Shown: positions 11,888 to 40,937 of the stretch, piece after piece | Position numbering within the stretch: position 1 is the stretch's first letter | Layout: every line of letters begins with the position of its first letter | Assembly (NCBI GenBank): GCA_003614675.1 | Contig: ML002331.1 | Location: 1-41,059, forward strand | Source: Dimargaris cristalligena | Lineage: Eukaryota | Reading direction: 5' to 3' | DNA: 41,059 bases | The notes under the pieces: model-generated | Seen by the model: the letters and a program-made list of their open reading frames with translations, nothing else | Told to the model about the DNA's origin: nothing | Database searches by the model: none | Program-made: the position numbers and the translations under genes

Positions 11888-14539
11888 ATGTCAACGGCCA
11901 TTATGAGCAGCACCGCCCCTATTGATATACTTCCGCCCCCCCTCTCTCCGCCGGCTTCTATGAATATCGACAATGTAGCTTCCTATACAAGTCCACCGGC
12001 GGTTGAGGGTGGATCATCACAGCTACCCCCATCACAACCTCCGCCGTCCACGTTGGAACCATTGTCCTTGTCGATGTCCCCAAGTGCAACCTTGGCCGCC
12101 GAGGCCCTAGCCAACCTTTCTCCGCCGAAAATCTCCCTGGCTCTAGGAGCCGGGCAGACGCCACCTTCAGCAACACAGTTGCGACCAGCATCCCCCGGCT
12201 CAGCGGCGCCATTACAGCGATTACCATCACTTCTTTCCCCGGTCGATATCAGTAGGCATTGCAGGAGCCAGACCCCCCCACCGGTTAATCATCTGTCGTC
12301 ACTACCACCCCTCCGCCTCCACTCCAAGCCTCCACCCATCGAGAAGGAAGATGCGGCAAGCCATATCTCCACAACACGGACGGGGGAGCACCCCCATCGC
12401 AATCACCTTCTATCTAGCAGCAGCGACCCTCCACCTAGTCGGGACACCCAGGCATCCACCCTAGGGAGGGAGCCCGCGGCCAGCCAAGGTCCAGGGGGCA
12501 GTCACTCCAACCACAGTACTTTGCCCACCAATTCGGTGCGCCACAACCAGAGTGTCTACGACTCTATGAGTCGGAAACGGGGTTCGAACAATAACGTATG
12601 GAGCGATGATGACGCTAAAGTTCTCTTGGACCGCATCCTGCATAACCTGGACGAATACCACCGCGCAAACAAGACGACGTATTACCGGGATATGGCCCAC
12701 TTGGTGTTCGAAAGTCGGTACACGGAAGCCCAGGTCAAGAACAAAATTACGTCGCTTAAAAAAGGGTACCACCTTGCCCTGGACCAGATCGCCACTTACC
12801 AAAGCCGCAATCCGAGCGACAATCCCGCGGTACAAGCCCAGGAAATAAGCAAGATTAAGCAGCACAACAGTCGGTTCTTTGCGGAGATTGACGAAATTTT
12901 TGGGCCGTCACGTAAAGACCGCCCATTATCAACCACCCATGTCCCGTCGGCGATCTACACCGAAGCGGAGGAGAGTGAAAGTCGACGGCGTGGTGGTGGC
13001 CCTTCCTCACTGAACACTTCGCCGGTTGTTGCAAATCAGGCCTTTGTGCATCGATCGCATATTCATCCACCACCACAGTCACGCTTCCATCCCTACCAAA
13101 GTCCTGAAGTCCGAAATCTTTCCCACTCCGTGGTAAGCGGCTCCCATCACCGACCTCATTCGGTCAGTCCGATCGTCGTACCCCGCTATGCTAGTGGTGG
13201 CCGTCACACTGCCGCCAGTCAACCTTCGGGGTCATACCCCGGTCCCTACGCTCCACCGGCATCTTCGACAACTATCGGAACTGGCTCTCACCCCTCGGCG
13301 CAAGCGTTAGGAGGTCATTCGACGGGCTATGACCGCACCTACGGTCCCACCGGGAGTGATTACCACCACCACCCTGTACCCTCGTTCGCTGACCGATCGT
13401 CGCATCCCGAAAATCCGGACTTGGCTTTGCCTTTACAGAACCTGCTGCACGGGTCTCGTCGCCTACTTACCGATTTTTCTAAACTGTTGGAAGTTTACGG
13501 CGGGTCACTCCGTTTTGATACCACCGGATCCACCTCCCACTCCTCCACGACGTCTTTATTACCGGAGCTGACTGAATTTCTTCGCAATTTAGACCATATT
13601 TTAGACCTTCGGTCTCACCTTGAGTCCGACCGTCCCGAATACCGGGCGATGCGCCCATCACAAGGTGGACAAGTCAGCGGATACGAAGAGCACGGCTGTT
13701 TGCCCAAAATGACCTCGCAAAATGGTTGGGAGCCCTATCCTCCAGCACAGCTACTGTCACCGCCCCCACATCAACCGGCAAGGTTACCCATTCCACACGA
13801 AGCTACGTCATCCGCCCCCAATAGCTTGTTTGCTAATCGACCCCGATCCAGCAGTTCTGCGGGACAGGGCCTTTCCATGGGGAACGGGCCGCCGGCGGTA
13901 TCCCATTTTTCGAACCCGCCTTCATCCACCCCCACTGCATCTACCCGCGTTCCGGCCAAATATCATCAGAACCAGCACCAGCTCCACTACTCCTATCCCC
14001 CTGACCCGGCCTATTCCTCCGGTGGCGATAGCCAGCCCAAGACAGCCCGACACGCCCACTCCCATTCGTATCAGCCCAACTCTGGCGAATCCCACCCGTC
14101 ATTCCCCGACGAAGAAGACATGGGCAAAACATCCCAGCATGCGTTTTCCACGGCAGCAGTCGGTACCTTGGCCTACGGGGGCGTGAGCCCATCCTTCCAG
14201 CCGAGAATGGGGGAGAGTAGTCATCTTTCAGCAATGGAGTCACCCGGTCCCCTATCCTCCCGACCGGCGCGTCATTCACCGTTGGTTTCTGCGAATTACC
14301 TCCGTCGAACCGAGGCCACCTCCCCATACAGCAATCCATTGCCCCCACCACCACTGCCCCAACCCATTACGACCTCGCCCTACTCCTCGATGCCCGGGAA
14401 TTCCATGCCGCGCCTTCGACACATGGTTCTACCACATGATCGCTCGGATTCGCCGACTTACTCCCGTAGGGATAGCGAGAATAGGAGTAATACCACGCTA
14501 TCCCGAACCCATGCCTCCCCCCACAATCCGCCCCGTTAA
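11888..14539 (+). CDS. Myb/SANT-like (trihelix) DNA-binding protein, ~883 aa, mostly Pro/Ser/His low-complexity; probable transcription factor
   Basis: Single-exon ORF; first true ATG is 11888 (the track start 11843 is TTG). Segment ~12596-12904 (WSDDDAKVLL...YTEAQVKNKITSLKKGY...RFFAEIDEIFG) fits the Myb/SANT-like trihelix pattern. Also an SRKRG basic patch and an RFHPY PY-NLS-like motif. Confidence 0.85.
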   Translation: MSTAIMSSTAPIDILPPPLSPPASMNIDNVASYTSPPAVEGGSSQLPPSQPPPSTLEPLSLSMSPSATLAAEALANLSPPKISLALGAGQTPPSATQLRPASPGSAAPLQRLPSLLSPVDISRHCRSQTPPPVNHLSSLPPLRLHSKPPPIEKEDAASHISTTRTGEHPHRNHLLSSSSDPPPSRDTQASTLGREPAASQGPGGSHSNHSTLPTNSVRHNQSVYDSMSRKRGSNNNVWSDDDAKVLLDRILHNLDEYHRANKTTYYRDMAHLVFESRYTEAQVKNKITSLKKGYHLALDQIATYQSRNPSDNPAVQAQEISKIKQHNSRFFAEIDEIFGPSRKDRPLSTTHVPSAIYTEAEESESRRRGGGPSSLNTSPVVANQAFVHRSHIHPPPQSRFHPYQSPEVRNLSHSVVSGSHHRPHSVSPIVVPRYASGGRHTAASQPSGSYPGPYAPPASSTTIGTGSHPSAQALGGHSTGYDRTYGPTGSDYHHHPVPSFADRSSHPENPDLALPLQNLLHGSRRLLTDFSKLLEVYGGSLRFDTTGSTSHSSTTSLLPELTEFLRNLDHILDLRSHLESDRPEYRAMRPSQGGQVSGYEEHGCLPKMTSQNGWEPYPPAQLLSPPPHQPARLPIPHEATSSAPNSLFANRPRSSSSAGQGLSMGNGPPAVSHFSNPPSSTPTASTRVPAKYHQNQHQLHYSYPPDPAYSSGGDSQPKTARHAHSHSYQPNSGESHPSFPDEEDMGKTSQHAFSTAAVGTLAYGGVSPSFQPRMGESSHLSAMESPGPLSSRPARHSPLVSANYLRRTEATSPYSNPLPPPPLPQPITTSPYSSMPGNSMPRLRHMVLPHDRSDSPTYSRRDSENRSNTTLSRTHASPHNPPR

Positions 14540-16974
14540 ATCCCCCTCCCTCCCCTATAGTGAAGAATCTGATATCGGACATCTCCACCAGTCTAGTTTT
14601 CGCGGTGGCTTATATTTAAGCTCTATTTTATTACATTTGTTCTGTATGTTATGTGCCCTTTTAATTGCGGATACATCATTCGATCTAATATTTGCCCTCT
14701 CTGCGAACCAGCCCCCAGTGGTTCCAGGTCCATCTCCTACAATCTATTTCTCTATATATCTAAGCTGCATAGTTTGTACTCTACCTTTGCCAACTCAGTG
14801 ATTGATCAAAAGTAATGCCCACCCAAAAGTTATCTGTATTTTCATTTAGATTTATTTTACATATGAATACCAGGGCATCCCTTTAATCTACGGATTTATT
14901 TTAGTAAAATGATTAGAAAATAGGGTGTAATCAAGGACAAGGCATGTCTGAGGGCTGGTGAAGGTTGTGGGTTGGGTTTTTAGTGATAAGGTAATACTTA
15001 AATCCATGTTACAGTGGGAGTCCCGTTGCCAGGATGGTTAAGTGGTAATACTTGGTGTATTTTAGACGAACACCTCATACCGTTACCAAGCGGTGGCATC
15101 AATCCAATAAACGACACGATTTCCCCGCCCTGTCTCCATATATCGAAAGCATGAAGGTGATTTTATGAAGGTATGTCCTTTTTCCGCTCTTCACCATTAG
15201 AGTTAGTACGAGTGGCGATGGCAGCACCAACCGTTACTCCCATTTAGTCTTCTGAATTGGGTCTTGGGCATAGCCACCTGCCGACATTGTACTAAAACCA
15301 GAGCTATAGATTGGACCTAAAAGTGATGTTTAAATGAGCTACAGTAGCGCTTGGGATTATCAAAATATTTAATGTACTTGTTCATATCGACTGTTGTATC
15401 TATTCTAAAAGGCCGAGTTCTAGGCGATAGGCACGATTTTGTTACTTGGTTTCTAGTCTTCCTAGTTTTTTCTGAACTTTCCAATCAACCCACATTTCAT
15501 TTTTGGAGGCCAGTATTAACAAATCCACTTCACTAATGTAGTTATTGGATTTGAATAGGTAAAGAGAGAGAATGGCGAGACTTCTATCCCCTCCAAATGC
15601 TGCCACCATAGAAAGTCACTATTACCTACTGGACACCACACCGCAACTTTGTTTGGGGTCTATCATAGTCCTTAAACTGCTACCATTTCGCCACTGGAGC
15701 TACTGCTAATAATACTTGGCACTAGAAATAATGACCAATCCGGAATTGACATGCTTTGAAAAATAACTACGGAAATTAGTTATACAAGTTGATTCCTTCT
15801 AATTAGATCATCAACGGCCCAAGGTTAGCAAACTCATATTTTTTTGGACGAACCGACATCACCAGCCCTTCCCTTATATCAGCCACTCTATCCCATTGCA
15901 TTGTTTAAATGGTACATTGATTACAAAAAATACTGCGGTTATTGACCTCGAAGAATGCTGGAGTTATACAAGCGGGTTTGCATCTATAACCGGTTGTGTA
16001 ACATGGCAAACAGTGAATGGTAAATGCCAAGCCGTCGGTAGGAATTAGGGGAGCCAAGCGAAACTCGCCACTGCGACACTCTAGATGCCACATCAACGGA
16101 GCTGGCTTTGTAGTTGGCGCAACAGAACATGTAATACCTTTTTTCCTGATATTCTAAAGGGCACCAGTCTTGCTATTATAAGAAGCTAAGGTTAAGAATC
16201 AATTATAACTTAAATACTGAGTTTGGGCTATTGGTGATTCGTTGAGGGATGATGATTGCAATCACTATATAATCGACCACCCTTGTTTTAGAGACATCAA
16301 GTGTATTTATTTAAGAGCGGAACGTATTTTTGACAGATATAATAGAGACTATTCGCGATAAATGTGGCTCAGTTTTGAGTGGCTTGAGGTCTTGGTGTCT
16401 GTACCCCCAGTCAAAAATGCCACTGGGCCAGCTCTCGCCTATGGAATTTTAACTATGTACGAGTATAACAAGGCCAAGAAATGATGAGGCTGCCCAGCTA
16501 CTAATATGCCGAATGTGACCAAATCTCCTATGTAGGCTGCTAAACAATGCATACTCGAATCTACGCCTACAAATCAATATTGGGGTAAGCGGGCTTCTAA
16601 CCAGGGGTATATTCAATATGGAATGGTGATACGAAGGAATACATGTATTCGAAGGATAGCACCAAAATCACTTATAATATGCCCCGTGGCGTAAATATTA
16701 AATATATAGGCCTATCCTTGGCTTAATCTAAACAAAATCGCGGCGGATGGAGGCGATGGGAACCTTCCCTGCGGCCTATGCTTTATGTCGATACGCTTGG
16801 TGGCGTTGTGACCTTGCTAATGCTTTAGTTGCACAAATGGGGCATCTGGGTTTTTATTGGGGGTGGGGGGCTCCGAGAAGGCAAGAGTGGCCGAAAGAAG
16901 GAATGGACTTAGAAATATGTTACAGTGGGCAGTTCATATTCAGCTACTGACCAACACCCAAACTAGGCCAACTT

Positions 16975-17004
16975 GTCAGTCAGTCAGTCAGTCAGTCAAT
17001 CAGT
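16975..17004. repeat. (GTCA)6 tetranucleotide repeat upstream of the CaaX ORF promoter
   Basis: gtcagtcagtcagtcagtcagtcaatcagt read directly. Confidence 0.9.
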
Positions 17005-17053
17005 GAACAACGCCAAATATTAGGCGATGGCCAGGAGACTGGGGGCGACCAAA

Positions 17054-17060
17054 TATAAAA
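17054..17060 (+). promoter_or_regulatory. TATA box of the small CaaX ORF
   Basis: TATAAAA 130 nt upstream of an ATG in CCACCATG context, with an ATG-free C/A-rich leader between them. Confidence 0.65.
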
Positions 17061-17183
17061 AGGAGGCCACTTTGTCCCTCTAATCAACCTTACCCCAACC
17101 TCACAATAGTTCCAATACTAACACCAATACTCACGAATCACACTACCTCCCATCCTTCTACTCTCCTTCAAGCCCTCTCCACC

Positions 17184-17372
17184 ATGTGTTCCGCCGCCGT
17201 CGCTCCCACCTCTATGGCCACCAACCCCCCGATGAACCCTAATTTGACCCGCATCTCTGCTCCGAAAATGGCCGTCACCAGACCCACTAAAGGCAGGGTC
17301 CAGCCGATTTACAACCACCCTTTAGCGCAGCTGCCTAAGCCCAAACAGTCGACTGCCTGCATTATGATGTAA
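17184..17372 (+). CDS. 62-aa small protein ending in CaaX motif CIMM (predicted farnesylated; lipopeptide-pheromone-precursor-like)
   Basis: Upstream TATA, strong start context ccaccATG, C-terminal ...KPKQSTA-CIMM-stop, and AATAAA at 17616-17621. Confidence 0.7.
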   Translation: MCSAAVAPTSMATNPPMNPNLTRISAPKMAVTRPTKGRVQPIYNHPLAQLPKPKQSTACIMM

Positions 17373-18789
17373 ATTAGGTCAAACGCAGCCAAAAAAAAAC
17401 AACTTAAGCCCGCGCGGGTTCGCACTTGGAGATGTAGACCGTACCTTCCCCCCCATACTACAAAGATCTACCGAACGACGCCGGCCGTCCTCGACGATTA
17501 CCGTTGCTTTCATATCTGACCAAACTCTCGGCCACTTTACTCCCCAAAGGATACGGTGTAGGTTAAACTTAGCACATTGTTAACCTAGGCCACCTTACCC
17601 TGTATGTCAATGTCAAATAAAGTCGATCATCTATATAACCTATATCGGTAGACTCTAGTATATAGATCCCAATTGCTGGATAGTTTTGTTTAAATCTAAA
17701 GAGGTGGAAATCTCCCGACAAGACTACTTTTTATATTGGATTGGCGAATAGCAGGCCTTCAATTGATCCCATCCGATGGATGGGAGAGGTAAAATCGCAA
17801 TGGTCCACCAATTAGATACGCCACCGTATTACATGGTTTGGGCGAATTTTGGCAACGTGTGGGGAAATTGTTTAGGGTGACGTAGCCCTGGGGATTAAGC
17901 CAAATGTGGCGTCGTATCCTAGTCAGCCTAATAATGTATGAAGGCTCCGATGAATTTTAAAAATGTCTGTGGACTAAACAAACAACTAACCTGATAATAC
18001 CTCTAGGCTAAAATAATATATAGATGCTGCTCTAATAGGTTTAAATAAAACATAATGGACTTTATAAAAATGATTTAATGTAGTGCTGAAATGTCAGCAG
18101 TAAAAAGGCGGTAGTAATGCCAATGGCCCATCGAGACGAGCCAACTTCCTGTTAAATACACCTCACCTTATTGTATTTTCATTAAAATTACCCCTGTAAA
18201 ATTGTAGAGTTATGCGACAACCACCTTGACAGCATCTCCACTATTGTTTTACAATTCCCCCCTGTTTCATACACTGAGCAAGGCAGAAAAGAAAGGGAAA
18301 TATAATATAAAGGAGGAACCAAACAGACCACGAGGCTTACGCCAACTCTTCACTGCGGCCTCCCTTGGCTTTGGCTTGGCGTTTTCCCGGGTCAACCAAC
18401 CCCTTCTTCTCCTCGTACTTTGGGTGATACTCCACCCCAACTTTACTCTTCAAGCCTCTGTTCTGTGCCGGATCCCCCTTGACTCTTATGCCTACCTTTC
18501 TGTTCTTTCTTGGTCGTTGAAATTCCCAAGCACGCCTTTGCTAACTCGTACATTCCCTTTCTTACACTCTACTCGCCTCATTTATTAACAGGCCTATTTA
18601 AGTTTATTTCTGGGGAATTGTCCCATTGCCCTAGTTCTGCCTCTACTTCCAACCAACAAGTCCTTGAGTTGTCGTCATAAGCAGTGCGTCTCTGGCCCCA
18701 ATCCTCCATTTGAAGACTGCAGTCGTTTATTCCGGCAATTTCGGCCTTATTGTTGTTCCACTGTACACCCGATTCCGTTCGTAATTAGC

Positions 18790-21120
18790 ATGCGACCCCT
18801 ATCGCCATTCGGCTATCCGGTTGGTCAGCGTCAGAGGGCAGGGGGGCTTCGGCGGCGGTCCCTGCTGCTCTTAGTGCTAGCCCTCTATCTTTCGGCCACC
18901 AATCTAGCCTGGGCCCATTCGCATTCTACCACGCCCCAGCCCTTCATTCGGGAAGCCCCGGCTGATTCGCTGGGTCCCAGCCGAGTAATTGTCGCCCGGG
19001 ATCTCGAAGATTCCACCTATGGTGTACGTAGTGCCGATCGTGCGCCCCTCAGCGATGACCCCGACGAACGCTACCATTGCTCGTCCATCTACGGAACCAA
19101 TACCGTTTTGGGCAGCTTTCGACCCGCCTTGGTGAATGTCAGTTTCAACACGGGGTCCTCGGCGCAAGTGGCCCTGGTCGTGTTTAATTGGCTCGACCAG
19201 GACCATTTGGGTAAGCCCAATCCCGCCTCCACTCCGGCCAACCCCACGCCCAAGGTGTTTGTCTGTACCGACGATGCCATGACCCTCCTATTATGCGACC
19301 GGTCCGAATACGGCCAAATCCTGGTCTCTGACCCCCAAACGACCCACTCGCCTATCCTTACCCGATACGTAGACTTAGCCGCCATTACGGACGCCGCTGA
19401 CTTGACCAATATCCTGAGCTACCCCGTGGCCGAAACGGGTATTTATTGCGTGGAGGCGGTATCGTTCCGGAGTCCCTCACCGGAGTCATTTTCCGGGGAA
19501 GTTCAGTGGATTAATCCCTACGGCAACCTCCCGGCTGTGTCGTACCCCAAAATCATGTTCTACGGTCTCATGACCATCACTTATCTAATTGTCGGTCTAC
19601 TGTGGCTTGTCGGCACCATTCGCTACTGGCGGGAGATTCTGCCCGTGCAAAACTACCTGTCCCTCCTGCTTATCTGTCTGCTCGTCGATTTCGCCGTCGA
19701 GTTTTGGTTTTTCCTTCATTACAATACGTACGGGTCGAAGTCGTTGCCCCTAACTATCTTCCTCATCATCCTAAGCGCCCTGCGCAACAGCTTGTCCTTC
19801 TTTATGCTTCTGCTGGTGGCTCTAGGATACAGCGTAGTCAAACCTTCTTTGGGTAGCACCATGCTCAAGTGCCAAATTCTGGCTGGTCTGCAGTTCCTGT
19901 TTGCTACTCTATACGGTATTGCCACCATCGCACGGTTAGGTAACAGCGATTCGGAACTGGTGGCTTTCATCGCCCTTTTACCTTTGGCCATTACCATGGC
20001 TACCTTCTACCTCTGGATCCTCATTGGTCTTTCGCGCACCGTACGCTTTCTCCAGATGCGGCACCAGCACTTCAAACTGGCCATGTACCGCAACATCTGG
20101 CGCCTTCTCTTCTTCTGCGCCTGTATCATCATGCTTCTTGTCCTGGTCAACATCATCAATTTCGTGTTCCGGAACGACCGCAAATGGATCGTCTTCCGCT
20201 GGCAGGTCCAATGGGTCCTTTTCGACGGCTGGCTCAACGCCCTTTACACCTTCGCCTTCTTCATCATTCTCTACCTCTGGCGGCCGACGAAACATAACTC
20301 GCGGTACGGACTGGAGGAATTGGCGGGGGATGAAAGTATCGCTAATGCGCGGGACGAGGAATTCTCCCCCGGGTTATCCCCCACCTTAGTGGTCCGCGGC
20401 GGCGGGGTTAATCCAATGTCGGGCGCGGGGGCTGACTTCCACCGGAGCAGCCAGTCCGTCCGGCACAACAGTCGGGGCGGAGCCGCCGACACCCATGACG
20501 CGGCCATGCACGAGATGGATCCCGCCATTGTGCTCCGTCAGTTTAACTCGCCCGATAATTTCGACGATTTCCTAGACCAGGAAGGCGAGGACGACGACGG
20601 TGACCGGAATAGTATTCACCACCCCGATTTCCATCGCCAAGACACGATATTCTCCTCATCAGCCGATGCGGCTTCCCATTCGCCCCAAGCCGTTAAATTG
20701 AATGGTTCCGCCGACGATATCCCTACCGTCGGCCGTAGCGGTGGTGGTGGTGGTAGTGGCCATTATGCGTCCATCCGAAGCCAAGGTGGGATGAGTGACG
20801 ATCACCTGAGTCATTCGATGATGGGACGCTCAACATCCATTTCCCGGTTGCATTCTCAGGATACCACCACCCTCTTCGACGTCGGGGACCAATTCGACCA
20901 CGACTTGGATCGTGACGAAGGGGATCCCGATAATGACCAAGCTCCCCTAACCGCCTCGGCCGCCCCGCCCGCTGGTAGTGGCGCTACCGGCTCCCGTCGA
21001 CCCCAACAGTCCCTTACGGAGCAGTTGGTGGATCGGGACTCCGATAGCCCTGGCAACAGCCCTAAAAGTAGTCTAGACGACTTTGCCGACTTTCAACAAA
21101 GCAGCAGCCACTTGCGCTAG
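18790..21120 (+). CDS. PTM1: PTM1 / GPR107-TMEM87 (lung seven-transmembrane receptor, GOST) family protein, ~776 aa
   Basis: Signal peptide (SLLLLVLALYLSATNLAWA). Lumenal domain with YPVAETGIYCV and WINPYGNLPAVSYPK. Seven hydrophobic segments including RNSLSFFMLLLVALGYSVVKPSL and YLWRPTKHNSRYGLEEL. Long acidic tail. First ATG is 18790. Confidence 0.9.
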   Translation: MRPLSPFGYPVGQRQRAGGLRRRSLLLLVLALYLSATNLAWAHSHSTTPQPFIREAPADSLGPSRVIVARDLEDSTYGVRSADRAPLSDDPDERYHCSSIYGTNTVLGSFRPALVNVSFNTGSSAQVALVVFNWLDQDHLGKPNPASTPANPTPKVFVCTDDAMTLLLCDRSEYGQILVSDPQTTHSPILTRYVDLAAITDAADLTNILSYPVAETGIYCVEAVSFRSPSPESFSGEVQWINPYGNLPAVSYPKIMFYGLMTITYLIVGLLWLVGTIRYWREILPVQNYLSLLLICLLVDFAVEFWFFLHYNTYGSKSLPLTIFLIILSALRNSLSFFMLLLVALGYSVVKPSLGSTMLKCQILAGLQFLFATLYGIATIARLGNSDSELVAFIALLPLAITMATFYLWILIGLSRTVRFLQMRHQHFKLAMYRNIWRLLFFCACIIMLLVLVNIINFVFRNDRKWIVFRWQVQWVLFDGWLNALYTFAFFIILYLWRPTKHNSRYGLEELAGDESIANARDEEFSPGLSPTLVVRGGGVNPMSGAGADFHRSSQSVRHNSRGGAADTHDAAMHEMDPAIVLRQFNSPDNFDDFLDQEGEDDDGDRNSIHHPDFHRQDTIFSSSADAASHSPQAVKLNGSADDIPTVGRSGGGGGSGHYASIRSQGGMSDDHLSHSMMGRSTSISRLHSQDTTTLFDVGDQFDHDLDRDEGDPDNDQAPLTASAAPPAGSGATGSRRPQQSLTEQLVDRDSDSPGNSPKSSLDDFADFQQSSSHLR

Positions 21121-21193
21121 ACTAAAAGGGAGGGGGTAGACGCTGAATATTAAACACCTGTTCTCCTCCTTGTTCCCTCTTTAGGGACCTCCT

Positions 21194-21196
<3 letters not shown>

Positions 21197-21233
<37 letters not shown>
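21197..21233. repeat. (CT)n microsatellite in the PTM1 3' region
   Basis: Direct reading of the sequence. Confidence 0.9.
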
Positions 21234-22726
21234 CTTTTTACCTTACTAATTGTATTTGTGGGTTGCACACTTGGGCGAATGTTTTGGTGCGAGTGATACC
21301 ACTTAGTAAGAAATTTTATAGGTCAGGACCAAGTGGATGGCCATCTATACCCGAAGCATCCAAACATTTTTGCCGTTTTAAACAATATCTCATTGCAAAG
21401 TCGATAAATTTGAAGGCCTATTTTCACGGCTAGCACTCCGTTGGGGTGACCCCTACCCCCTTTTTTATCCCATTTTTACTACTATTTTGGGCAATATATA
21501 TAGCGGTGCTCTTATTTCTATTTCAACCATTTTGTTTGTACATTTCGCATTATTTTTTGCTGTGCCTGCCCATCTCGCTTCCATAATCCGTTTTTGGCGC
21601 AATAACACGAACCCCCTTTGCACATCCGTCGCCGCTTATGAGAGAAAACTAGTACAATATTATCGGGGGAAGCTGATTTTTTATATAGAAATTTACACAT
21701 CATTACATGAGGAGGACACAGATGCTCTGAGCATGGCTATATGAGCCATAAGTCAAATAATTTGTGCGTCCCCAACCTTACATGAGACAAGTATCGCTCC
21801 AGTCCTATCCCTCAGACCCCTCCTTTGGATGGAGATGATACAATACTGGATGTAAAAATCAACCTTATACAATTAGGTGCAGGTGCACCAATGTTAAACT
21901 ATAGCGGATCAAGCTACCCTTGTATTTTGCCATTTCATTTAGCAGAAATAGTGGGGTCACCGAATAGGGAGGGCTCTTAGCAAGTATTGGCGGCGTAAAA
22001 TTACAGTCTATAATTCCTAAAATAATTATATTCATTGCTGGAATCTATTAAATGTCGATAGAATGTCTTCCATGCCAACTGGAAGAACATCTGGCAGCAC
22101 TGTCCTGAACGCACAAGGAAGCAATACGATTGCTCCAATTGTGGTGGATTAACCTAAAAATAATATCAAGATCATACAATGGGGAGTGAAAGAAACGTCA
22201 GACAAGAGGTTATATATTCACTGGCAATATGTCAACTGGGCTGTTCAGCTAATAGGAAAAGGCAATTGGTCCTACCCAACCCCGATAAGTGACTGAATGG
22301 TGTAAATGAAATATAAAAAAGCAAGCGGAGGGGACGCGGAAGTGCATTCGTTTGCCTTTGGGGTTTTTCGGTCCCGGCGATAACTATTATTCCTTTTCAG
22401 TGTCACTCTGGTGACACGCAAATGAAGGACGAGATACACTATCGATATTGCCCACCTCTATTACCCACCGCCTAGCTATATAATGGCTTAGTATTCCTGC
22501 TCGTTCAATTTAACCTCCCGGATCTTAATTTCTCACTGGCTAATTCGACTTCTGATATCCCCTAATTATTCGGTATTGCAACCATCGCCAATTCCCAGCG
22601 GCGTCGATTTACATTCGCAAGTGCACATGCAGTGTTGGTCACTGTATATATGAGGACTATTCTAAAATTACATCCTCTTTCACTCCCACTAGAATCTCGG
22701 CATTTAGCTTCATTTTGTACTTCAGC

Positions 22727-25221
22727 ATGTGGGGGAACTACGGCTATCATTATCTCTTGACCCTGGTCCTGGCCACCCAGGTCCGAGAAATTATAAGTTT
22801 ACCTCAGCCCCAGCCGCGTTCGAATAAGTCCTCGAATGGGTCCCCCAGAAATCAACCAGCCAATCTTAGAGTTCTGACCCGACATACTCCCCGCTTTGGT
22901 CAACGCGCGGACACACTGCGGATGTGGGCTATACCGACGGCGCCGGTGAATACGGTGGGAATCTTGGCTAATGAAAAGGCCGCCATCGACCTTGAAGAAG
23001 CAAATCATGCCGGTGGTGACAATACTGGCAATCCAGTTGAGTTTGATAACCTAGAAATCTACCCTATTGCCGACAACTTGCGGGGCCAGGCGACCCGGGA
23101 GGGGTTCCCAAATGCTTTAGGTGCTAGGAATGATAGCACCCTCTTCCCAACTACCCGGCCTACTAGTTCAGTCACCGCAGTCAGCGATACTAGCTCCAGG
23201 CCCACACTATCTATTCAATCCCATCGCTTTGGGCTGTCGGATACAGATTCTAAACTCGGCCAATTACCGATGGAGCTTTTCAACGAGATCCTAGGAAAAT
23301 TGAACCCGGATTCGGTCGTTGAGTTGCATCGCACTTGCCACAAAATAATGGGTTTAGTGGAGTGCAGCCCACGAATTATGAATTATGCTAAGGTAAGTCA
23401 TGGCTTGGTTAAATTGCTGTGATACAATAGAGATATAGTATTTGGGTTGTGCTCATAATCGAACCTGCCCTACATCTTCTTAAACTGGATATGGTGTTAT
23501 TATTCAATAGTCCGAAGGACGGCAAATAGATGGCCAATAGGATCCCACTCTCATCTAAACGTAAAAGCCAAGGCCTCCCTTACTGCATACTAGTCCTATG
23601 CACTTGTCTGGTTAGTGATCTTTCCATTTTCGAAATAGACTACCCGTCGTATTTAATTTAACGCCATGTTTCGTCTACCATACCTTTTCAACCGTCACAT
23701 ATTGAATCCTCTCAGAAATTTGTTCAAATTCGGGCCATTCTTAAATATCCTTTTTTGGGTTTGGATGGCTATGACCATCCGGTTCTTCAGCTCCTACCAT
23801 TCGAGTATGATGACGCCCTGATCAAAACTATGCATCAACTTCCCTTCGTACGCACCTCCACCCCAGCTCGACTGGCCAATTTCATTAATCCGGGTTTAGA
23901 TCCCATACCTTTTGACTTGGCTCAATCGCTCCAAATCTACACAATAAATGTACTGGATACTCAGGACCACCAAGGTACAGGCGACTGGGTCTACGTGAAT
24001 TACCTCAAATTAACTACAGACCAACGCATAAAGCTATTTCCCCTCATTAGGTTTGCGGAACATCAGCATCACGAACAGCTCCAGTTGGGGGACAAAGCCC
24101 TGGCAGAGGAAAGGAGCTTTTATGCCATGTATTCACAGGCCTATATGACCTGCGTATTGGCGCTGCGCACCACGGATGATCTACTCGCTGCTCTTGGTTC
24201 AACGGCCCATAATGCGGTGGATTCGAGATTTATTGACCCTGTGACCCTGATCAGCGGCTGGGGTATCAGTATTACTCAACTGGCCGACAGGGTCGTCCTG
24301 AATCGTTGGGCTCGAGCGGTCACAGTGCTCTTGACTCTCCACGAAAAGGGTATTGCTTCCCCAAATGTAAATCGCTCGCACCGCTATCCTCCTCTCCTTA
24401 AAGCCTGGGAAGGATTGAACAAGTTATTCAGGCGGGCTACAGTATCCGAACACCTACCCAACCCCGCCCTGGATTTCTTTTACTTAAGTATATTACAATC
24501 CAATCTAACCAGTGAACATGATCGGCCTTATTTCTCATCTCCGACCCAGTCAGTTGATGGAGCATTCCCCGGCCACTTCAATGAAGAGACTCGCCGACGA
24601 CTACATGCCTTGGAAGACACCGCTATGGGACACTTTCGGAATCGCTGGCCAATAGATTGTGCGCGTAAAATGGGCTTTCCAAATGCCGCCGATAAATTGG
24701 AAATCGCCCGTATTGGAGTTATTCGAGGCGAACGTGGTGTATTCGGTAGAACCGGTTGGAATCTAACCTGGGATTGGGATAGGCGGTGGGGTGAAGCCCC
24801 TGCTGCTGGTAACCGCATAGGTCAGGCGGAATGCATCGACATCTTTACAGGGGGCGACTATATGTACCTAGACTTGCGCGATAGGAACGCACCCGTTATG
24901 GCAATGCGGGTTCGTCGGGCATACCTCAGCGATATTCTCCAAGATAATAACAATGGGAACACAAGTGGTCCTAGAGAAGAAGATACCACCGGAACATCTG
25001 GGACGGGCAGGCCTACTACCATGGGTGATGGTCGTGGAAATGAACCCGGCCACCAATCCGATGCTGAAATCACCCTACCAAAGTATTTTCCGTTATTATC
25101 AAGTCGTCTCACCGAGCAACTTATTCAGCGATCCCAGCAGCTAATTGAATACACTCAACTTAAGGCCGAGGATCGCTGGGATGCCGCCCATGATAGTCAA
25201 ATACCCGACATTGCCTACTGA
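22727..25221 (+). CDS. Predicted secreted protein with an internal F-box-like motif, ~723 aa; exons 22727-23392 and 23716-25221
   Basis: N-terminal hydrophobic LLTLVLATQVREIIS-LP. F-box pattern LGQLPMELFNEILGKLNPDSVVELHRTCHKIMGLV (~23255-23362). Phase-0 donor AAG|GTAAGT at 23393 and in-frame acceptor CTCTCAG| at 23715 join the two track ORFs. An extra 81-nt exon (23530-23610) is possible. Confidence 0.7.
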
Positions 25222-26138: not shown

Positions 26139-26597
26139 ATGAAGCTCATTCAGTTTGCCGTTTGGGCTCCGGTCATCTTACAAGGCCTTGCTTTGGCCCT
26201 TCCCACTGAAACCAGGATTACCTCATTTACTCACCGGGATAGCCCCAATAAATGTGGTCCACCCCAAGTCCCCACTCCCACCACCACTAAAGTAGATTCC
26301 ACTACCACCATTGATAGTATGCCAACCGACACGGACGGACCCACCCCCGGTGAACCTTCCGGATGCAATGTCTTTGCCAGCGGGTTCGCGGAATACGAGA
26401 TCCAAATCGTCGGTGCCACCCTCTCCGATTTCACCTCAAAGGGAAGCGACTACGCTGATAAAGTAGCGAGGATCATCACTTGCTTCACGCTCACGGCCAT
26501 CATTCCCTACGACATGAAACTAACGTTCCGTATCCGGTCCGTCGATGCCGAAGTTCTGCGGACATGGCCCGAGACCTCCTCTGTCATCGAAGTCTAA
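26139..26597 (+). CDS. Secreted Thr-rich protein, paralog 1 (152 aa; CGPPQVP motif + I9/propeptide-like C-terminal domain)
   Basis: Signal peptide ending GLALA-LP; NKCGPPQVPT; Thr/Pro linker; C-terminal domain ending RIRSVDAEVLRTWPETSSVIEV. Clear homology to the three neighbouring genes. Confidence 0.9.
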   Translation: MKLIQFAVWAPVILQGLALALPTETRITSFTHRDSPNKCGPPQVPTPTTTKVDSTTTIDSMPTDTDGPTPGEPSGCNVFASGFAEYEIQIVGATLSDFTSKGSDYADKVARIITCFTLTAIIPYDMKLTFRIRSVDAEVLRTWPETSSVIEV

Positions 26598-28003: not shown

Positions 28004-28549
28004 ATGAAGGTTCTTCTACTTGCCGCCTGCACCCTCGCTGCTCTCCCGGGTCTGGCACTGGCCTACCCCGCCAACAACCCCGAATGTACCCACCTCGTTC
28101 GCCGTGACGGTTCCAACAGCAAGTGCGGCCCGCCCCAGGTTCCCACCATCACTGTTCCGGTCGTCGATCCCACCCTTACCTTGAGTGTTACTCCTACCGA
28201 AGAGACCACCGCTACTACTACTTCCACCGAAGAGTCCACCGCCGCTCCCATCGACCCTACCACCACTACCACCGAGGCATCCTATACTCCAACCCCAACG
28301 GGTCCCCCCGCCTGCGATCCTAAAGGTACCGAGTTTGATGACTACAAGGTCACCCTCGCTGGCATCACCTATTACGGTAATTTTGAAATGGAAATGGACA
28401 CCTATATGAACAAGATCAAGGCCAACCTTGATTGTTTTGAATTTGTTACGGTTAATTCTATGGTCATGTATTTCCAGTACCGTCTCCGATCTAGTGAAGC
28501 TGATCTTCTGCGGTCCTGGCCCGAAACTGGCTCGGTCATGAAGATGTAA
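28004..28549 (+). CDS. Secreted Thr-rich protein, paralog 2 (181 aa)
   Basis: Signal peptide MKVLLLAACTLAALPGLALA; VRR|DG dibasic site; KCGPPQVPT; Thr-rich stalk; C-terminal domain ending YRLRSSEADLLRSWPETGSVMKM. Confidence 0.92.
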   Translation: MKVLLLAACTLAALPGLALAYPANNPECTHLVRRDGSNSKCGPPQVPTITVPVVDPTLTLSVTPTEETTATTTSTEESTAAPIDPTTTTTEASYTPTPTGPPACDPKGTEFDDYKVTLAGITYYGNFEMEMDTYMNKIKANLDCFEFVTVNSMVMYFQYRLRSSEADLLRSWPETGSVMKM

Positions 28550-29084: not shown

Positions 29085-29630
29085 TTAAGCTAGCGTGACC
29101 GAGCCCGTTTCAGGCCAAGACCGCATAATTTCGGCATCACTGGGACGAAGGCGGTAGACCAGTTTCAAAGCGAAGGAGTCATCATCAGTGAGTAAGTAGC
29201 AATCGAAAGTGGCACGGACCTTATCCTTGTATTCGTCTTCCGACCCTTCAAAAACCATGTAATCGTTAACTCCAGCGAGGCGAACAATATAGGAATTGAA
29301 GCCAGTCCCTCTAGGATCACAACCGGTGGGACCCGTTGGAGTTGGAGTATAGGATGCCTCGGTGGTAGTGATGGTAGGGTCGATGGGAGCGGTGGTGGAC
29401 TCTTCGGTGGAAGTAGTAGTGGCGGTGGTCTCTTCGGTAGGAGTAACACTCAAGGTAGGGGTGGGGTCGACGACCGGAACAGTGGTGGTGGGAACCTGGG
29501 GCGGGCCGCACTTGTTGTTGGAACCGTCACGGCGAACGGGGTGGGTACATTCGGGGTTGTTGGCGGGGTAGGCCAGTGCCAGACCCGGGAGAGCAGCGAG
29601 GGTGCAGGCGGCAAGTAGAAGAACCTTCAT
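29085..29630 (-). CDS. Secreted Thr-rich protein, paralog 3 (181 aa)
   Basis: N-terminal 101 aa nearly identical to paralog 2; C-terminal domain YIVRLAG...YRLRPSDAEIMRSWPETGSVTLA. Confidence 0.92.
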   Translation of the reverse strand: MKVLLLAACTLAALPGLALAYPANNPECTHPVRRDGSNNKCGPPQVPTTTVPVVDPTPTLSVTPTEETTATTTSTEESTTAPIDPTITTTEASYTPTPTGPTGCDPRGTGFNSYIVRLAGVNDYMVFEGSEDEYKDKVRATFDCYLLTDDDSFALKLVYRLRPSDAEIMRSWPETGSVTLA

Positions 29631-30838: not shown

Positions 30839-31288
30839 TTACAATTGCGTGACCGAGGCCGTCTCGGGCCAGGTTCGTAGAATGTCTGCATCACTAGAGC
30901 GTAGCGTGTAGGTCAACTTCTGGAAAGCGTTATTAATGGTCGTGAGGGCGAGGCAAGAAAAGGCACTCTCAACTTTGGTATTATACTCGCGCCACATGGT
31001 TCCGAAGGTTTCGAAGTTGGTGCCGACGATTTTGACCTCGTATTCGGCGAAGCCACCCGCAAAGACGTTGCAGTCTTCGTGGGGTGGGGTGGAGGGTTCA
31101 TCGGACGTAGTTGTGGTGGTGGTGGCTACCTCGTCGCTGGCAGTAGTGGTGGGAACTTGGGGCGGACCACACTTGTTGTTGGAACCGTCACGGCGAACCA
31201 GGTGGGCGCAGTCAGAATCGGCGGGCAGGGCTTGGATGAGGCCCTGGAGGCCAGCCAGAGCGCCGACGGCGAATAGGAAAACCTTCAT
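30839..31288 (-). CDS. Secreted Thr-rich protein, paralog 4 (149 aa)
   Basis: First ATG 31288 (MKVFLFAVGALAGLQGLIQA-LP); HLVRRDGSNNKCGPPQVPT; C-terminal CNVFAGGFAEYEVKIVG...LRSSDADILRTWPETASVTQL. Confidence 0.92.
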   Translation of the reverse strand: MKVFLFAVGALAGLQGLIQALPADSDCAHLVRRDGSNNKCGPPQVPTTTASDEVATTTTTTSDEPSTPPHEDCNVFAGGFAEYEVKIVGTNFETFGTMWREYNTKVESAFSCLALTTINNAFQKLTYTLRSSDADILRTWPETASVTQL

Positions 31289-33564: not shown

Positions 33565-34737
33565 TTAGAACTTGAGGGGCTTGGCCTGTTCCCAGGGGAA
33601 TTCTTCGCGGCCGAAGTGACCGTAGCAGGCAGTGCGCTTGTACATGGGCTTGAACAGGTTCAATTCCTTGACGATGACACCGGGGCGGAGATCGAAGTTG
33701 TTGTTGATGATCTTCAGGAGGTCGGCGTCGGAACGCTTACCAGTGCCATAGGTATCGACGAAGATGGACAGAGGATGGGCAACACCGATGGCGTAGGACA
33801 CCTGGACGAGAGCACGACGGGCCAGGCCGGCGTGGACCAGGGACTTGGCGATCCAGCGGGCGGCGTAGGCGGCAGAGCGGTCGACCTTGGACCAGTCCTT
33901 ACCCGAGAAGGCACCACCACCGTGGGCACCCCAACCGCCGTAGGTATCGACGATAATCTTACGACCAGTCACACCGGCATCACCCTGGGGACCACCAATG
34001 ATGAACTGGCCCGAGGGCTGCAGATGGTAGACGGTCCGGTCACTGAGGTAGTGGGCGGGCACGACAGCGTCAATGACCTTATCCTTGAGCTCACGACGGA
34101 TAACCTCGTTGGTGGCTTCAGGACCATGCTGGGTAGAGATAACGATGGTGTGGACGCGCTGGGGCACCATAGCGCCGTTTTCGTTGCGGTATTCGACAGT
34201 GACCTGGGTCTTGGAGTCGGGACGCAGCCAACTGAGCTCGCCGCTACGGCGGAGCTCGCTCATCTTAGCGTTGAGCTTGTGGGAGAGCACGGCAGTGAGA
34301 GGCATGAGCTCGGGGGTTTCGTCGGTGGCATAACCGAACATGATACCCTGGTCACCGGCGCCGGTATCCTCGAGGGCAACACCGTTCTGGGCCAGACCCT
34401 GGGCAATTTCGGGGGACTGCTGCTCAATGGCCACGAGCACGTTACAGGTCTTGTAGTCGAAACCCTTGGCAGAGTCGTCATAACCAATCTCCTTAATGGT
34501 TTCGCGGATAATGCGCTGGTAGTCCAAGGTGGCCTTGGTGGTGATCTCACCAAGAACCATGATCATACCGGTCTTGGTGGCGGTTTCGCAAGCCACCTTG
34601 GAAAGGGGATCCTGCTCCAGACAAGCGTCCAGGATAGCGTCGGAGACCTGGTCGCAGATCTTGTCGGGGTGGCCCTCACCCACGGATTCGGAGGTGAAGA
34701 GGAAGGTCTCGGACTGCTCAGGGATAGCGTGAGTCAT
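33565..34737 (-). CDS. SAM1: S-adenosylmethionine synthetase (methionine adenosyltransferase), 390 aa
   Basis: Signature motifs [39 protein letters not shown]; strong codon bias. Best start is gtcaccATG at 34737; an in-frame weak-context ATG lies at 34776. Confidence 0.98.
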
Positions 34738-36290: not shown

Positions 36291-39057
36291 TTGTATGTAT
36301 AGTATAGTAGTAAGTAAGGTGTGGATGGACGACGATGATCCAAAAGGGTGGAGAATGGCGCCATTTCAGACCTATCACCAGCCACCGCTGAAAATGGCTC
36401 CATTTAGTTTGGTTGACTCTCTCCCTATATTCTAGTTACTTAGGCCAAGGCAATATTAGAGTGTATTGGATTGGATGGGCTGGCTGGGAGGAGGTCTATT
36501 AGCGGATGAGGCGGTTGGTAAAGAGTAAAGTAGTATTCAGTAGCTTCTCCTCTGCCATATATACACTAGCCCGTCCCTATTTTGGACGACTGCTAAATTA
36601 TGACTATCCCTATTACTCCCCGATTGGTGCAGAATGATTCCCCCAGATAACGGATGGGCTCTATACCCCGCTCCACGCCCATAACCTGCACAAGAAATGG
36701 GTGCTTATTATTCTGCCGACCCATCATCCCCGATTGGCTTGATGGTCCGGTCACAACTGGACCATCCCCTCTCCCTTAGAATACATGATTTAGGGATATT
36801 AAGTTGGTTAAATTAATACCACCTACTTTCCTTCTCCCAATGCATGGATGAGCCTGGCCTGGTGTGAAAAGGGGAAAGGGTAATTAATAATAATAGTATT
36901 ACCTATTACCACGGCGCAGATTCAATGGGGCCGCGGTCACGTCGGCCGATGATTGGGAGAGACGAACCCAATGTGCTTTTTCTCTTCTCATATCCCACTG
37001 CCCCTATACTACTTGTCCTCCGGGGTTGTCTTCCGCTATCCCCACCACCATCTGACATGGCATGTGAGAGGCGTAGGGTAGCGTCCCCATTGCGGTTGTG
37101 CGTCTCTCTCACACACCCTTTGGCGCTAGATAAATAAGGATTAATCTACGGGTAATAAACACTATACTATAGTAAAGTATAATAATAGACGTGTGAGTGG
37201 TGGGTACGAGCCGAAGGGTGAACCCCGTCGCTTGTGTGACTGTCCCCAATAGGTGGTTGACCCGAGTGGCTGGATGTTGTCTGGTTGACATGTCCGTCTT
37301 AAAGTACAGGGTTTCATGACTATATGGATGAAGGCAGATTGCTAATATAACCCCATTATGACACACCTGCGCCAACTCCTCTCTTAAGTCCCCTCCATCC
37401 TTCGGTTATTCTATCAGCATATACACAGCCTCACCCCCTTAAGGCCAGTCACACGCCCTTCCCCATATCTCTTCGGCAGTTGCCTTGGGGGTGTAAATCA
37501 ACATGGGTGTTTAGTAGGTGTAGGATAGTCCTTGGCTGTTGTTGATATTGGGTTGGCTGGGGAGCAATTGATGGAAATTGCGCCGCCCTAAAAAAACCCC
37601 CGTCAACAACAATAGATTACTGATTGATCAGTCAACGGGGTGGTTGCTGAGGTTGATTTTCCGAGATGCGGGATATAAGTTAGCGATGGTCATGAACCAA
37701 ATAATAGGCAATGGGAAGTCTCGCCTTTCTGTGGATAGGCACATGTTGATGCAGTGGCGATTCTTTCTGGCGGGCCTGGAGTCCCAAAGCAAACCTGCCC
37801 CACTGTGAACGACCCTTATCATCCCTGGCCTGGTGATGGTAGGTAATCCAGTGAAATTTCGGATAATGTGGTTAAATTCATCCGTCGGTCTGCCTGCTTT
37901 ACTCCAACAGTATTCACATGTGCATGGAGAGATACCCGTCATCTGGAAAGTAGTGACTGTTGTCTGGGGGGTTCACGGGATAAATTTATACCTCTAGTTC
38001 AGCCGAGCTGGGCCACATGGGCAAAGGTCGCCGTGACGGCATCTATCCTTTATTGGAGATGGGTATGAAGCCCATTCAGCCCGAAGGACTGGCATACCCC
38101 TCTACCAGGGACCATCAGCATAGGTGGGATGTGGGTGGAAGCGGCGGGTGAGAGGCCATCGCCACAGGATACCTGCTAATGCTTATGGTAATAATCATTC
38201 CGGGCCCCCACTTGATAGATCACTCCGCCACCAAGACCCATTTGCACGGGAGATTGGCTTTAATATGACTCCCCTCTCCCCCATCTTCCAGGCTTCTGTA
38301 CTGGCGATTAACTAAAGCCCATTTACTGCACGTAGGTCCACTGAAACTCCCTAAGAATAGCTTAAACGATTCAATCACAGACCAATTCAGAATACCTGCT
38401 TGTCCTAAGAATACCCTTTCTCACCCATTTGGATCTACTGGTTTAAAAGCCTTAGTGGATATAGCACATAATCGACAACTCCCCTCTCGAATTATAGACG
38501 GACCAGCAGGCAAACTCCATCCCGGAATATAATGAACGGACAGCACAGGTGTATATGGTATCTAATGAAGGTAGTTCTGATTACCATATGCCTCCCTCTT
38601 CCCCCTTCACATAACTCACTCACTCATCTTTTAATTTCGGCTACTTTTCCGGACAGGGAAGGGAAGAGAGCTACAGCGATTTTAGGGTGAAATATCCCAC
38701 AGGGCCATTTCATTTACTGATTCGTCCGAGCTGTGCCTCAGCCAAAAGACGGGAGGATAGAGTTTAGACAGCGCGTCTGTTCGGTATTCAGCTCCTTGCA
38801 TTATTCAAAGCCATGGAAGGGGGTAATACTGGTACGAGGTAGACCGATTTTACCCAGAGGCCTTATGCTTTCTAGTAGGCTATCCCCCACCCATTCCCCC
38901 TTTCCTTCCAGGGGAGGTGGTCTTCATTATTGGGATTCCCCGCTTACCTAACAGCCTAACCTGGCCCAAATTAGATGGACTAACCGTACTTCCTCTTCTC
39001 CCCATCTCTTTCACAACCGGATCACCGACGATCCCACCCCCCCACCTTTATTCCACC

Positions 39058-39848
39058 ATGTCAGCTAGTCAATCGGCCCACCTCCAGAAGCGGACCGCAC
39101 CCTCTCGGTCGCATATCGAAGAAGCCGGTCTTCCTGCCACCTCCACCTCCGCAGGTGTCGAGCCGGAACATCCCACGTACCCACAGGGAAGACTTCCTCC
39201 CATTGCTGATTCGGGACGTGCCCCCGGCGCACTGCTATTTACGACCCTATTACTATTGCTCGGGTACACTTATGTCCAGTGGCTCGATTTGGTCAACGTC
39301 TGGCGTTACGATGACCGGGTAACCCAGTAAGTAGTGTTTACATAGTGGTAGTGGCAATACTCTTAGACATGTACTAATATCCCCAATATAATGTATTGAA
39401 TAATTAAGGGAGGGGGTATATCTATGTGGTTATCGGTATTTCAATTCATCTCACCTTGGTGCCCCTAAGTAATTTTACACATTTATTAATTGGGTCCGAC
39501 TATATATATATATATTGCCACCTGCTATCATGTCCCTTCCTAAATCGCCCCTTGTCATACCAATCAATCCCGTTTAGTACCATACTCCAATTGAGTGCGC
39601 TGGCATTTCTGCCCTTCGCCGTGACTATGTTCTATTTCCGGATTTATGTCCAGGGTATCCGGGGTATTCGGGTCAACTGGAATCAGGGCGAGACGCTGTA
39701 CCCCACCGCCATTCGGGTAGCATCATTCAGTTTGGTACTGGGCTATCTGTTAATTATTATAGCCTTTTGGCCCGTGTGGGGATTCTTAACGGTGGGCCAT
39801 GTGTGTATACTATCCCTCGGACTTATCGGTGTCGTTCGTTTGTTCTGA
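39058..39848 (+). CDS. TMEM128-like four-TM membrane protein, ~179 aa; exons 39058-39326 and 39578-39848
   Basis: ccaccATG start. Donor CA|GTAAGT at 39327 and acceptor GTTTAG| at 39577 preserve frame. Motifs YDDRV, YPTAIRVAS and IAFWPVWGFLT resemble TMEM128 as I recall it. Confidence 0.75.
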
Positions 39849-40078: not shown

Positions 40079-40937
40079 TTAAAAGCCTGGGGGAGTCATT
40101 GCTGAGCCTTGTTGGGGCTGGGGGGAACCGGGCAGGCCGTGGATGGGGGCACCGGGCGGGTAAAGACCGGGCTCGAGGGCCTACCATGGTGTCGGGATCA
40201 TATGCGGAATAGAGATAAAAGTATTTTTACAGAGGGGTGTTGTTAGTGGGAGGTTGGGAGAGTATGGAGGGATGGATTGGGGTATTGTAACCCGGAAAGT
40301 GATTTAAGGAAAAAGTTGATCAGGCTGAATCATCAAGCGTGGAGGTGAATGTGCTAGTATTGCTCAATATTTGTTGTATTTTCAAGGGTCTACTACCACA
40401 CCTCTTAATACACAGCAACGAATGGACACCACTGTACAAATGGAGATACTAATATCTATACATATCTAGATAGACAGATATAGTAGAGGTAGCTCTAAGC
40501 TCACCTTACTACAACCAACTTACCTGCTGGGGACCCGACTGAGTCAAGCGGGCTTCAGTATCGTACTGGGCCAAGGCCTGGTCCTTTTCCATTTCCAAAG
40601 CCAAGGGCACCAGGATCACCAACGCCGAAGTGGAAATGACCCAAGCGAGACCGCCCATCAGCCGGAAGCCGCTTTTACCGGTATTCACCAGCGTATCGGC
40701 GCAGTGGCTAATGAGGTTACGCTGCCGCAAAGGGATGATATCCTTCAGGGCGACGATCCGTTCCAGGAGGGACTCGTCCTCGTACTCCTGGTCATCCTCG
40801 TCGTCTTCTACGTCGTCACCCTCGTCGAATTCGGAATCGTCGTATTCGGAGCCGGAGACGTCGGTGTATTCGTCCTCGTTTTCGAGTTCGAAATCCTCGC
40901 CGACTTCGAGGGTATTCAGTTGTTCGATTTTGACCAT
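40079..40937 (-). CDS. TOM22: Mitochondrial outer-membrane import receptor Tom22, 171 aa; exons 40937-40524 and 40180-40079
   Basis: MVKIEQL, acidic tract, ESLLERIVALKDIIP, and TM WVISTSALVILVPLALEMEKDQ. Phase-0 intron CAG|GTAAGT...CACTAAC...GGTAG| gives the tail ALEPGLYPPG...TPPGF-stop. Confidence 0.95.

Follow-up and report, generated by a model that had tools for sequence, protein, structure and literature searches.

The window (the whole 41,059-nt stretch of DNA analyzed here) carries on its forward strand an intronless open reading frame (ORF) of 62 codons (189 nt) at positions 17184 to 17372, which ends in the CaaX box CIMM (17358 to 17369) and a TAA stop codon (17370 to 17372). A TATA box, TATAAAAAGGAGG (TATAAAA; 17054 to 17060, forward strand), lies 130 nt 5′ of the ATG at 17184, and the PTM1 gene is preceded, at 18306, by a near-identical sequence, TATAAAGGAGG. 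TATAWA sequences were present no more than 260 nt from the ATG in four of the seven neighboring genes. The ATG at 17184, in the context ccaccATG, is the first downstream of the TATA box, and the inferred 5′ untranslated region preceding it (17085 to 17183, forward strand; transcript start putative) is C/A-rich, G-poor, and free of upstream ATGs, ending in ccacc. A possible but weak polyadenylation signal, AATAAA, is located at 17616 to 17621 (forward strand); as this hexamer occurs within 300 nt of the stop codon in one of the seven neighboring genes, it is poor evidence for polyadenylation. An earlier note on this DNA had described the TATAAAA, the ccaccATG, the 62 codons, the CIMM-stop, and the AATAAA, and all were present as it stated.

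A short (CAGT)n repeat was identified at 16975 to 17005 (forward strand), ∼50 to 80 nt 5′ of the TATA box. The Rfam search of positions 14500 to 18800 returned no matches, and the region 3′ of the ORF did not fold better than shuffled sequence (z 0.74). Contigs from four DNA runs were compared with positions 16000 to 21500, and three differences were identified, none inside the CaaX ORF. As the four runs are near-identical to the window and one is possibly its source, this comparison is no test of conservation; three of them were without cover past 18760, from which nothing follows. Among the sequencing runs listed for this DNA, none was an RNA run, which counts neither for nor against expression.

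The ORF is flanked upstream by a gene for a low-complexity, Ser/Pro/His-rich protein of ∼880 aa (11903 to 14539, forward strand), in which sub-threshold Myb/SANT-like (PF13837; E value, 0.0005, below the curated cutoff) and GeBP-like matches fell at one domain. Downstream lies a gene for a seven-helix protein assigned by Pfam to the PTM1/GOST family (18790 to 21120, forward strand). Two public models exist for the latter, of 776 and 515 aa, with identical sequence in the displayed overlap. Its closest relatives were from Tieghemiomyces parasiticus (68% identity), Dispira parvispora (66%; partial), Dispira simplex (60%), and Dimargaris verticillata (59%), with identity to Basidiobolus and Mucorales proteins dropping to ∼40%, which identifies the host as a mycoparasite of the Dimargaritales (Zoopagomycota) and bears out the suggestion that it lies outside Dikarya. 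The four Dimargaritales orthologs are IWQ60_006372, H4R34_003977, IWQ61_005034, and IWQ62_002190. Most of them carry long C-terminal tails (proteins of 707 to 759 aa in three of four), and the orthologs from Mucorales are ∼550 aa in length.

Several other genes in the window were also noted. Four paralogous small proteins are encoded at 26139 to 26597 and 28004 to 28549 (forward strand) and at 29085 to 29630 and 30839 to 31288 (reverse strand). Each begins with a signal-peptide-like N terminus and contains the conserved motif KCGPPQVPT and a linker rich in Thr; the C-terminal domain is variable apart from two invariant Cys residues and a conserved WPET end. Identity to the first was 38 to 48%, and no Pfam family was found in the three of four that were scanned. 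The genes at 28004 to 28549 and 29085 to 29630 form an inverted, facing pair with near-identical N-terminal halves. The four are a candidate diversifying secreted family of the mycoparasite. At 22556 to 23422 (forward strand), a frame opens with a signal-peptide-like sequence and matches the F-box weakly (E value, 0.02); it is followed on the same strand, at 23662 to 25221, by a 519-codon frame with no Pfam match. Given a GTAAGT donor near 23392, the two could be exons of a single secreted, F-box-like gene. Similarly, the forward-strand frames at 38827 to 39330 and 39408 to 39848, the second of which matched PF20479 (E value, 8e−20), probably belong as two exons to one gene of the TMEM128 family; a GTAAGT donor lies near 39328. 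Intronless genes for S-adenosylmethionine synthetase (33565 to 34737) and Tom22 (40509 to 40937) were found on the reverse strand.

A strict CaaX ending was carried by one of the 356 ATG ORFs of 20 to 120 aa in the window, and at least one CaaX-ending ORF was present in 24% of 200 Markov-simulated windows; by itself, such an ORF is within chance expectation. Using criteria picked after the locus had been seen, the combination of a CaaX box, A at −3, and a TATA box 60 to 250 nt upstream was found in 4 of 1,000 simulated windows, and the CaaX combination with an ACCATG start context in none of 1,000. The synonymous-codon score of the ORF was 0.206 bits per codon, a value reached by none of 88 intergenic ATG ORFs of 40 to 90 aa (mean, −0.22; SD, 0.15) and mid-range among 49 windows of presumed real genes (mean, 0.148; SD, 0.22), under a codon model trained on nine presumed genes of the window, two of which score negative themselves. 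The in-frame stretch before the ATG scored −0.44, giving a sharp change at the start codon. An alternative frame of the same stretch scored 0.10 bits per codon, so the codon signal is partly one of base composition.

The exact 62-aa protein is present in NCBI and nr as a predicted record forming a one-member cluster from one contig (144,426 nt), and therefore at least one public annotation already calls the gene. The PTM1 neighbor is also recorded on a 41,059-nt contig, where the 62-aa peptide is not listed; this suggests that another annotation overlooked it. The anticipation that gene callers could miss this gene holds only in part, the exact protein being already in NCBI and nr. Overall, the sequence signals indicate that the CaaX ORF is very probably a real translated gene, with expression predicted.

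The encoded protein contains 10 Pro, 8 Ala, 6 Met, 6 Thr, 4 Asn, and 7 Lys/Arg residues and no Asp or Glu, giving a pI of 10.6 and a net charge of ∼+6.6. It had been described as Pro/Thr/Asn-rich; with no more than 4 Asn, it is Pro/Ala/Met/Thr-rich. By inspection, no hydrophobic stretch resembling a signal peptide was identified, in agreement with the earlier note. The only Cys residues are Cys59 of the CaaX box and residue 2. AlphaFold2, run on the single sequence and therefore weak in the absence of an alignment, predicted no fold (pTM, 0.12; no secondary structure elements). Translation of positions 17337 to 17345 (forward strand) gives Lys52-Pro-Lys54 shortly before the CaaX box, which could provide a possible second membrane-binding signal.

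For a random protein with the amino acid frequencies of six window genes, the probability of a strict CaaX end is 2e−4, and so the CaaX box, if the gene is real, has probably been selected. The C terminus reads Cys-aliphatic-aliphatic-Met, as in canonical CaaX-processed proteins, provided that the transcript is unspliced at 17369. CIMM was positive in three of four prenylation predictors and two of two cleavage predictors for yeast (PMC9231725). Its heat-map scores were 4.81 for Ydj1 (cutoff, 3) and 14.07 for Ras, compared with Ras scores of 16.81 for CVIA and 4.87 for CASQ (PMC10320760), these scores being sums of group averages from yeast and not a direct assay of CIMM. On the basis of these published yeast predictors and screen scores, CIMM fits the profile of canonical, fully processed (prenylated and cleaved) motifs, and prenylation in the host is predicted. 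Met at the X position of a CaaX box indicates a farnesyl group (PMC3068285).

Searches for relatives were uniformly blank. Among proteins of near length the only candidate was the protein itself, and the single candidate among longer proteins had no match at an E value of ≤10. A phmmer search of all representative proteins gave two matches, the protein itself and P0005 (E value, 8e−24), a 1171-aa plant RPS2-like LRR protein that was rejected as a homolog; the score is an artefact summed from nine near-identical repeats of at most about 27 bits each. None of 376 pattern matches in metagenome contigs was confirmed as a homolog, and no Pfam family was matched at E values up to 10 by the whole 62-mer or its last 32 residues, so that a known family such as the G-protein gamma subunits, which the earlier note had named as a possible refutation, was not encountered. 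The Pfam pheromone families were likewise unmatched, although for peptides this divergent such a search has little power. Three unnamed, mostly bacterial ESM Atlas clusters at 0.90, with low recognition and no named match, were set aside. No paralog was identified in the 41-kb window and no ortholog among annotated Dimargaritales proteins. The gene is therefore an orphan at the sensitivity of the search tools used; for a 62-residue low-complexity protein, such blanks do not show that relatives are absent. The missing annotated Dimargaritales ortholog is equally compatible with rapid evolution, as seen in pheromones, with a recent origin, and with incomplete annotation.

The reading that we favor, if tentatively, is that the gene encodes a lineage-restricted, farnesylated, basic, disordered mini-protein anchored to membranes from within the cell. 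The 62-mer would be translated in the cytosol and follow the standard CaaX pathway, in which farnesyl would be added to Cys59, the IMM removed, and the carboxyl group methylated. The lipid, together with seven basic and no acidic residues, could then direct the protein to the cytosolic face of an acidic membrane (the plasma membrane or an endomembrane), where the disordered Pro-rich chain may offer a partner protein a short motif for docking or competition. Expression, prenylation in the host fungus, retention in the cell, and the docking role are all inferred. The role has been reached by elimination. Counting against tethering, only two Lys residues lie near Cys59, which makes for a weak polybasic patch, and the very short CaaX proteins described from fungi are mainly pheromone precursors. 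Nevertheless, a membrane-tethered micropeptide, offered by the earlier note as its fallback, fits better than a pheromone.

The best-surviving alternative, which we consider unlikely, is that the gene encodes the precursor of an exported lipopeptide signal, processed like a-factor (CaaX modification, N-terminal trimming, and ABC export), detected by a non-Ste3 receptor, and used for mating, for communication between hyphae, or in contact with the host. The ORF shares with pheromone precursors its small size, the lack of a signal peptide (by inspection), and a canonical CaaX box fit for prenylation and cleavage, and its 189 nt fall within the 100- to 200-bp range for basidiomycete precursors (PMC8970355). 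The basic charge does not exclude a pheromone, as the proven precursor HPP1 is also basic (PMC3068285). Its orphan status would also be expected, given that similarity searches miss pheromone precursors (PMC3834313), and the mating genetics of Zoopagomycota are not well understood (PMC10386755).

The cues to maturation fare less well. The acidic-basic (ER/DR) maturation site that basidiomycete precursors have ∼10 to 11 residues before the Cys (PMC8970355) is absent from this protein, which has no Asp or Glu. Asn44, 15 residues before Cys59, had been put forward as a processing cue and could serve as an Axl1-type Asn-X site like the N21-Y22 cleavage site of a-factor (PMC2134810), but by hand calculation 4 Asn in 62 residues give a chance of ∼40% of finding one in any 8-residue window. 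The 15-mer up to and including Cys59 is hydrophilic (GRAVY, −0.71) and exceeds the 10 to 11 residues cited for basidiomycetes (PMC8970355). The KGR noted upstream is present at residues 36 to 38 but is not a KR/RR pair, of which the 62-mer has none. Moreover, Kex2 acts in the secretory lumen, which a cytosolic peptide never enters. The gene is single copy in the window, and no linked receptor candidate was found except the adjacent GOST protein, which was rejected as a pheromone receptor because it belongs to the PTM1/GOST family and is not Ste3-type.

Slightly less probable again is a chance or newborn ORF with no selected function in a transcribed or untranscribed intergenic stretch. Such an ORF would account for the lack of a homolog in the protein and metagenome searches and for a public record that is a prediction on one contig, and a CaaX-ending ORF by itself appears in 24% of simulated windows. 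It would not readily explain joint signals recovered in only 4 of 1,000 simulated windows, or a codon bias that exceeds all 88 intergenic ORFs and shifts abruptly at the ATG.

It is very improbable that the gene truly belongs to the a-factor/basidiomycete pheromone system and that its genome also encodes a Ste3 receptor. No STE3 was identified by Pfam among 13 window proteins and 48 intergenic frames. Ste3 has been described as a fungal novelty (PMC10406608). In Supplementary Data 4a of that study, among the rows listed, the Ste3 cluster mcl_623 was present in 0 of 12 Zoopagomycota genomes, including D. cristalligena (BUSCO, 0.94), in 0.286 of 14 Mucoromycota genomes, and at values of 0.67 to 1 in Dikarya groups, with columns matched to the header by position and with the proviso that a divergent Ste3 could cluster separately. 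In Rhizophagus (Glomeromycotina), Ste3 and Ste6 orthologs were found and the peptide gene was not (PMC3834313). As Ste3 is listed in Mucoromycota and reported in Rhizophagus, it does extend outside Dikarya, which favors such a system to a degree, and STE3 has been called generally conserved in fungi, with no clade breakdown (bioRxiv 10.1101/546531). No STE3 result was contained in the PMC9866270 file or in 12 of the 19 files of PMC6733946, and passages of PMC8778642 and PMC7490403 contained nothing on peptide precursors. Among the open-license papers listed, none describes in its title or abstract opening a CaaX pheromone precursor from Zoopagomycota or Mucoromycota. The reported absence of a receptor is the heaviest point against a pheromone. 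With Asn44 explicable by chance, and with the KGR, the ER/DR site, a receptor or paralog in the window, and the Ste3 table (0 of 12) all failing, the pheromone-specific part of the earlier proposal is not supported, and the case for a pheromone is weak. Because the defining features tested fail and the receptor is reported absent, the gene should not be classified as a pheromone of the a-factor family.

Finally, it is highly doubtful that the ORF is a single exon within a spliced gene, or that the stop codon and CaaX box are lost to an intron beginning in the last codon. A GTAAAT spans part of the last codon and the stop at 17369 and is followed by a branch-like CTGAC and an AG at 17549 or 17561, but this donor is weak, without G at +5, and the two spliced products would still be short, at 72 and 68 aa. 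In the public model the 62-mer is unspliced, and 46 of 48 intergenic frames had no Pfam match (the other two being sub-threshold), so that no GTPase or other upstream exon was seen. The confidences given to these readings, when summed, leave a remainder for roles that were not thought of.

A real short CaaX gene in the Dimargaritales gives a cheap and concrete means of asking whether prenylated peptide signals occur beyond Dikarya. An internal membrane-tethered mini-protein would be a modest addition, an orphan prenylation substrate. An exported signal would be important: the gene could then be the first lipopeptide-signal precursor of the Zoopagomycota, exported in an a-factor-like manner and perceived by the host mold or through a receptor other than Ste3, an outcome with a probability of about one in five. 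In that event, prenyl-peptide signaling would either be older than Ste3 or have evolved twice among fungi, and the missing ligand of the Mucoromycota Ste3 genes would best be sought among short CaaX ORFs.

Compared with known systems, the 62-mer resembles the Saccharomyces a-factor precursors (MFA1/MFA2; Ram1/2, Ste14, Ste24, Axl1, Ste6, and Ste3) in being short, in lacking a signal peptide, in its canonical CaaX box, and in having an Asn upstream of the Cys, a-factor being cleaved at N21-Y22 (PMC2134810). It differs in having no sequence similarity to them, in its length of 62 aa, in a would-be mature part that is hydrophilic with two Lys residues, and in a host phylum from which the Ste3 family is not reported. 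The basidiomycete precursors (Phe3/mfa, P/R locus) share its length class and CaaX box (PMC8970355), whereas the 62-mer has neither the ER/DR site nor any acidic residue and no STE3 nearby. In that work, the ER/DR site and STE3 linkage served as acceptance criteria, and CaaX matches far from STE3 were dropped as false positives (PMC8970355). The h-type precursor HPP1 of Trichoderma reesei, a proven pheromone precursor of 48 aa (pI 9.63), is likewise small and basic, with an ideal Kozak sequence, a long 3′ untranslated region, and a Met-ending CaaX box, but it carries three copies of a six-residue motif with KR-type sites (PMC3068285), compared with one CaaX box and no KR/RR pair here. With Ras and G-gamma anchors the 62-mer shares Lys residues near a Met-ending CaaX box, and it differs from them in having no GTPase or G-gamma domain (Pfam E values up to 10; flanking frames also), no predicted helix, and 10 Pro residues. 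In the tails of the Ras family and in G-protein gamma subunits, the prenyl group and basic residues act as a membrane anchor. Overall, the locus holds an orphan gene for a CaaX mini-protein, probably a real one, in a fungus outside Dikarya.
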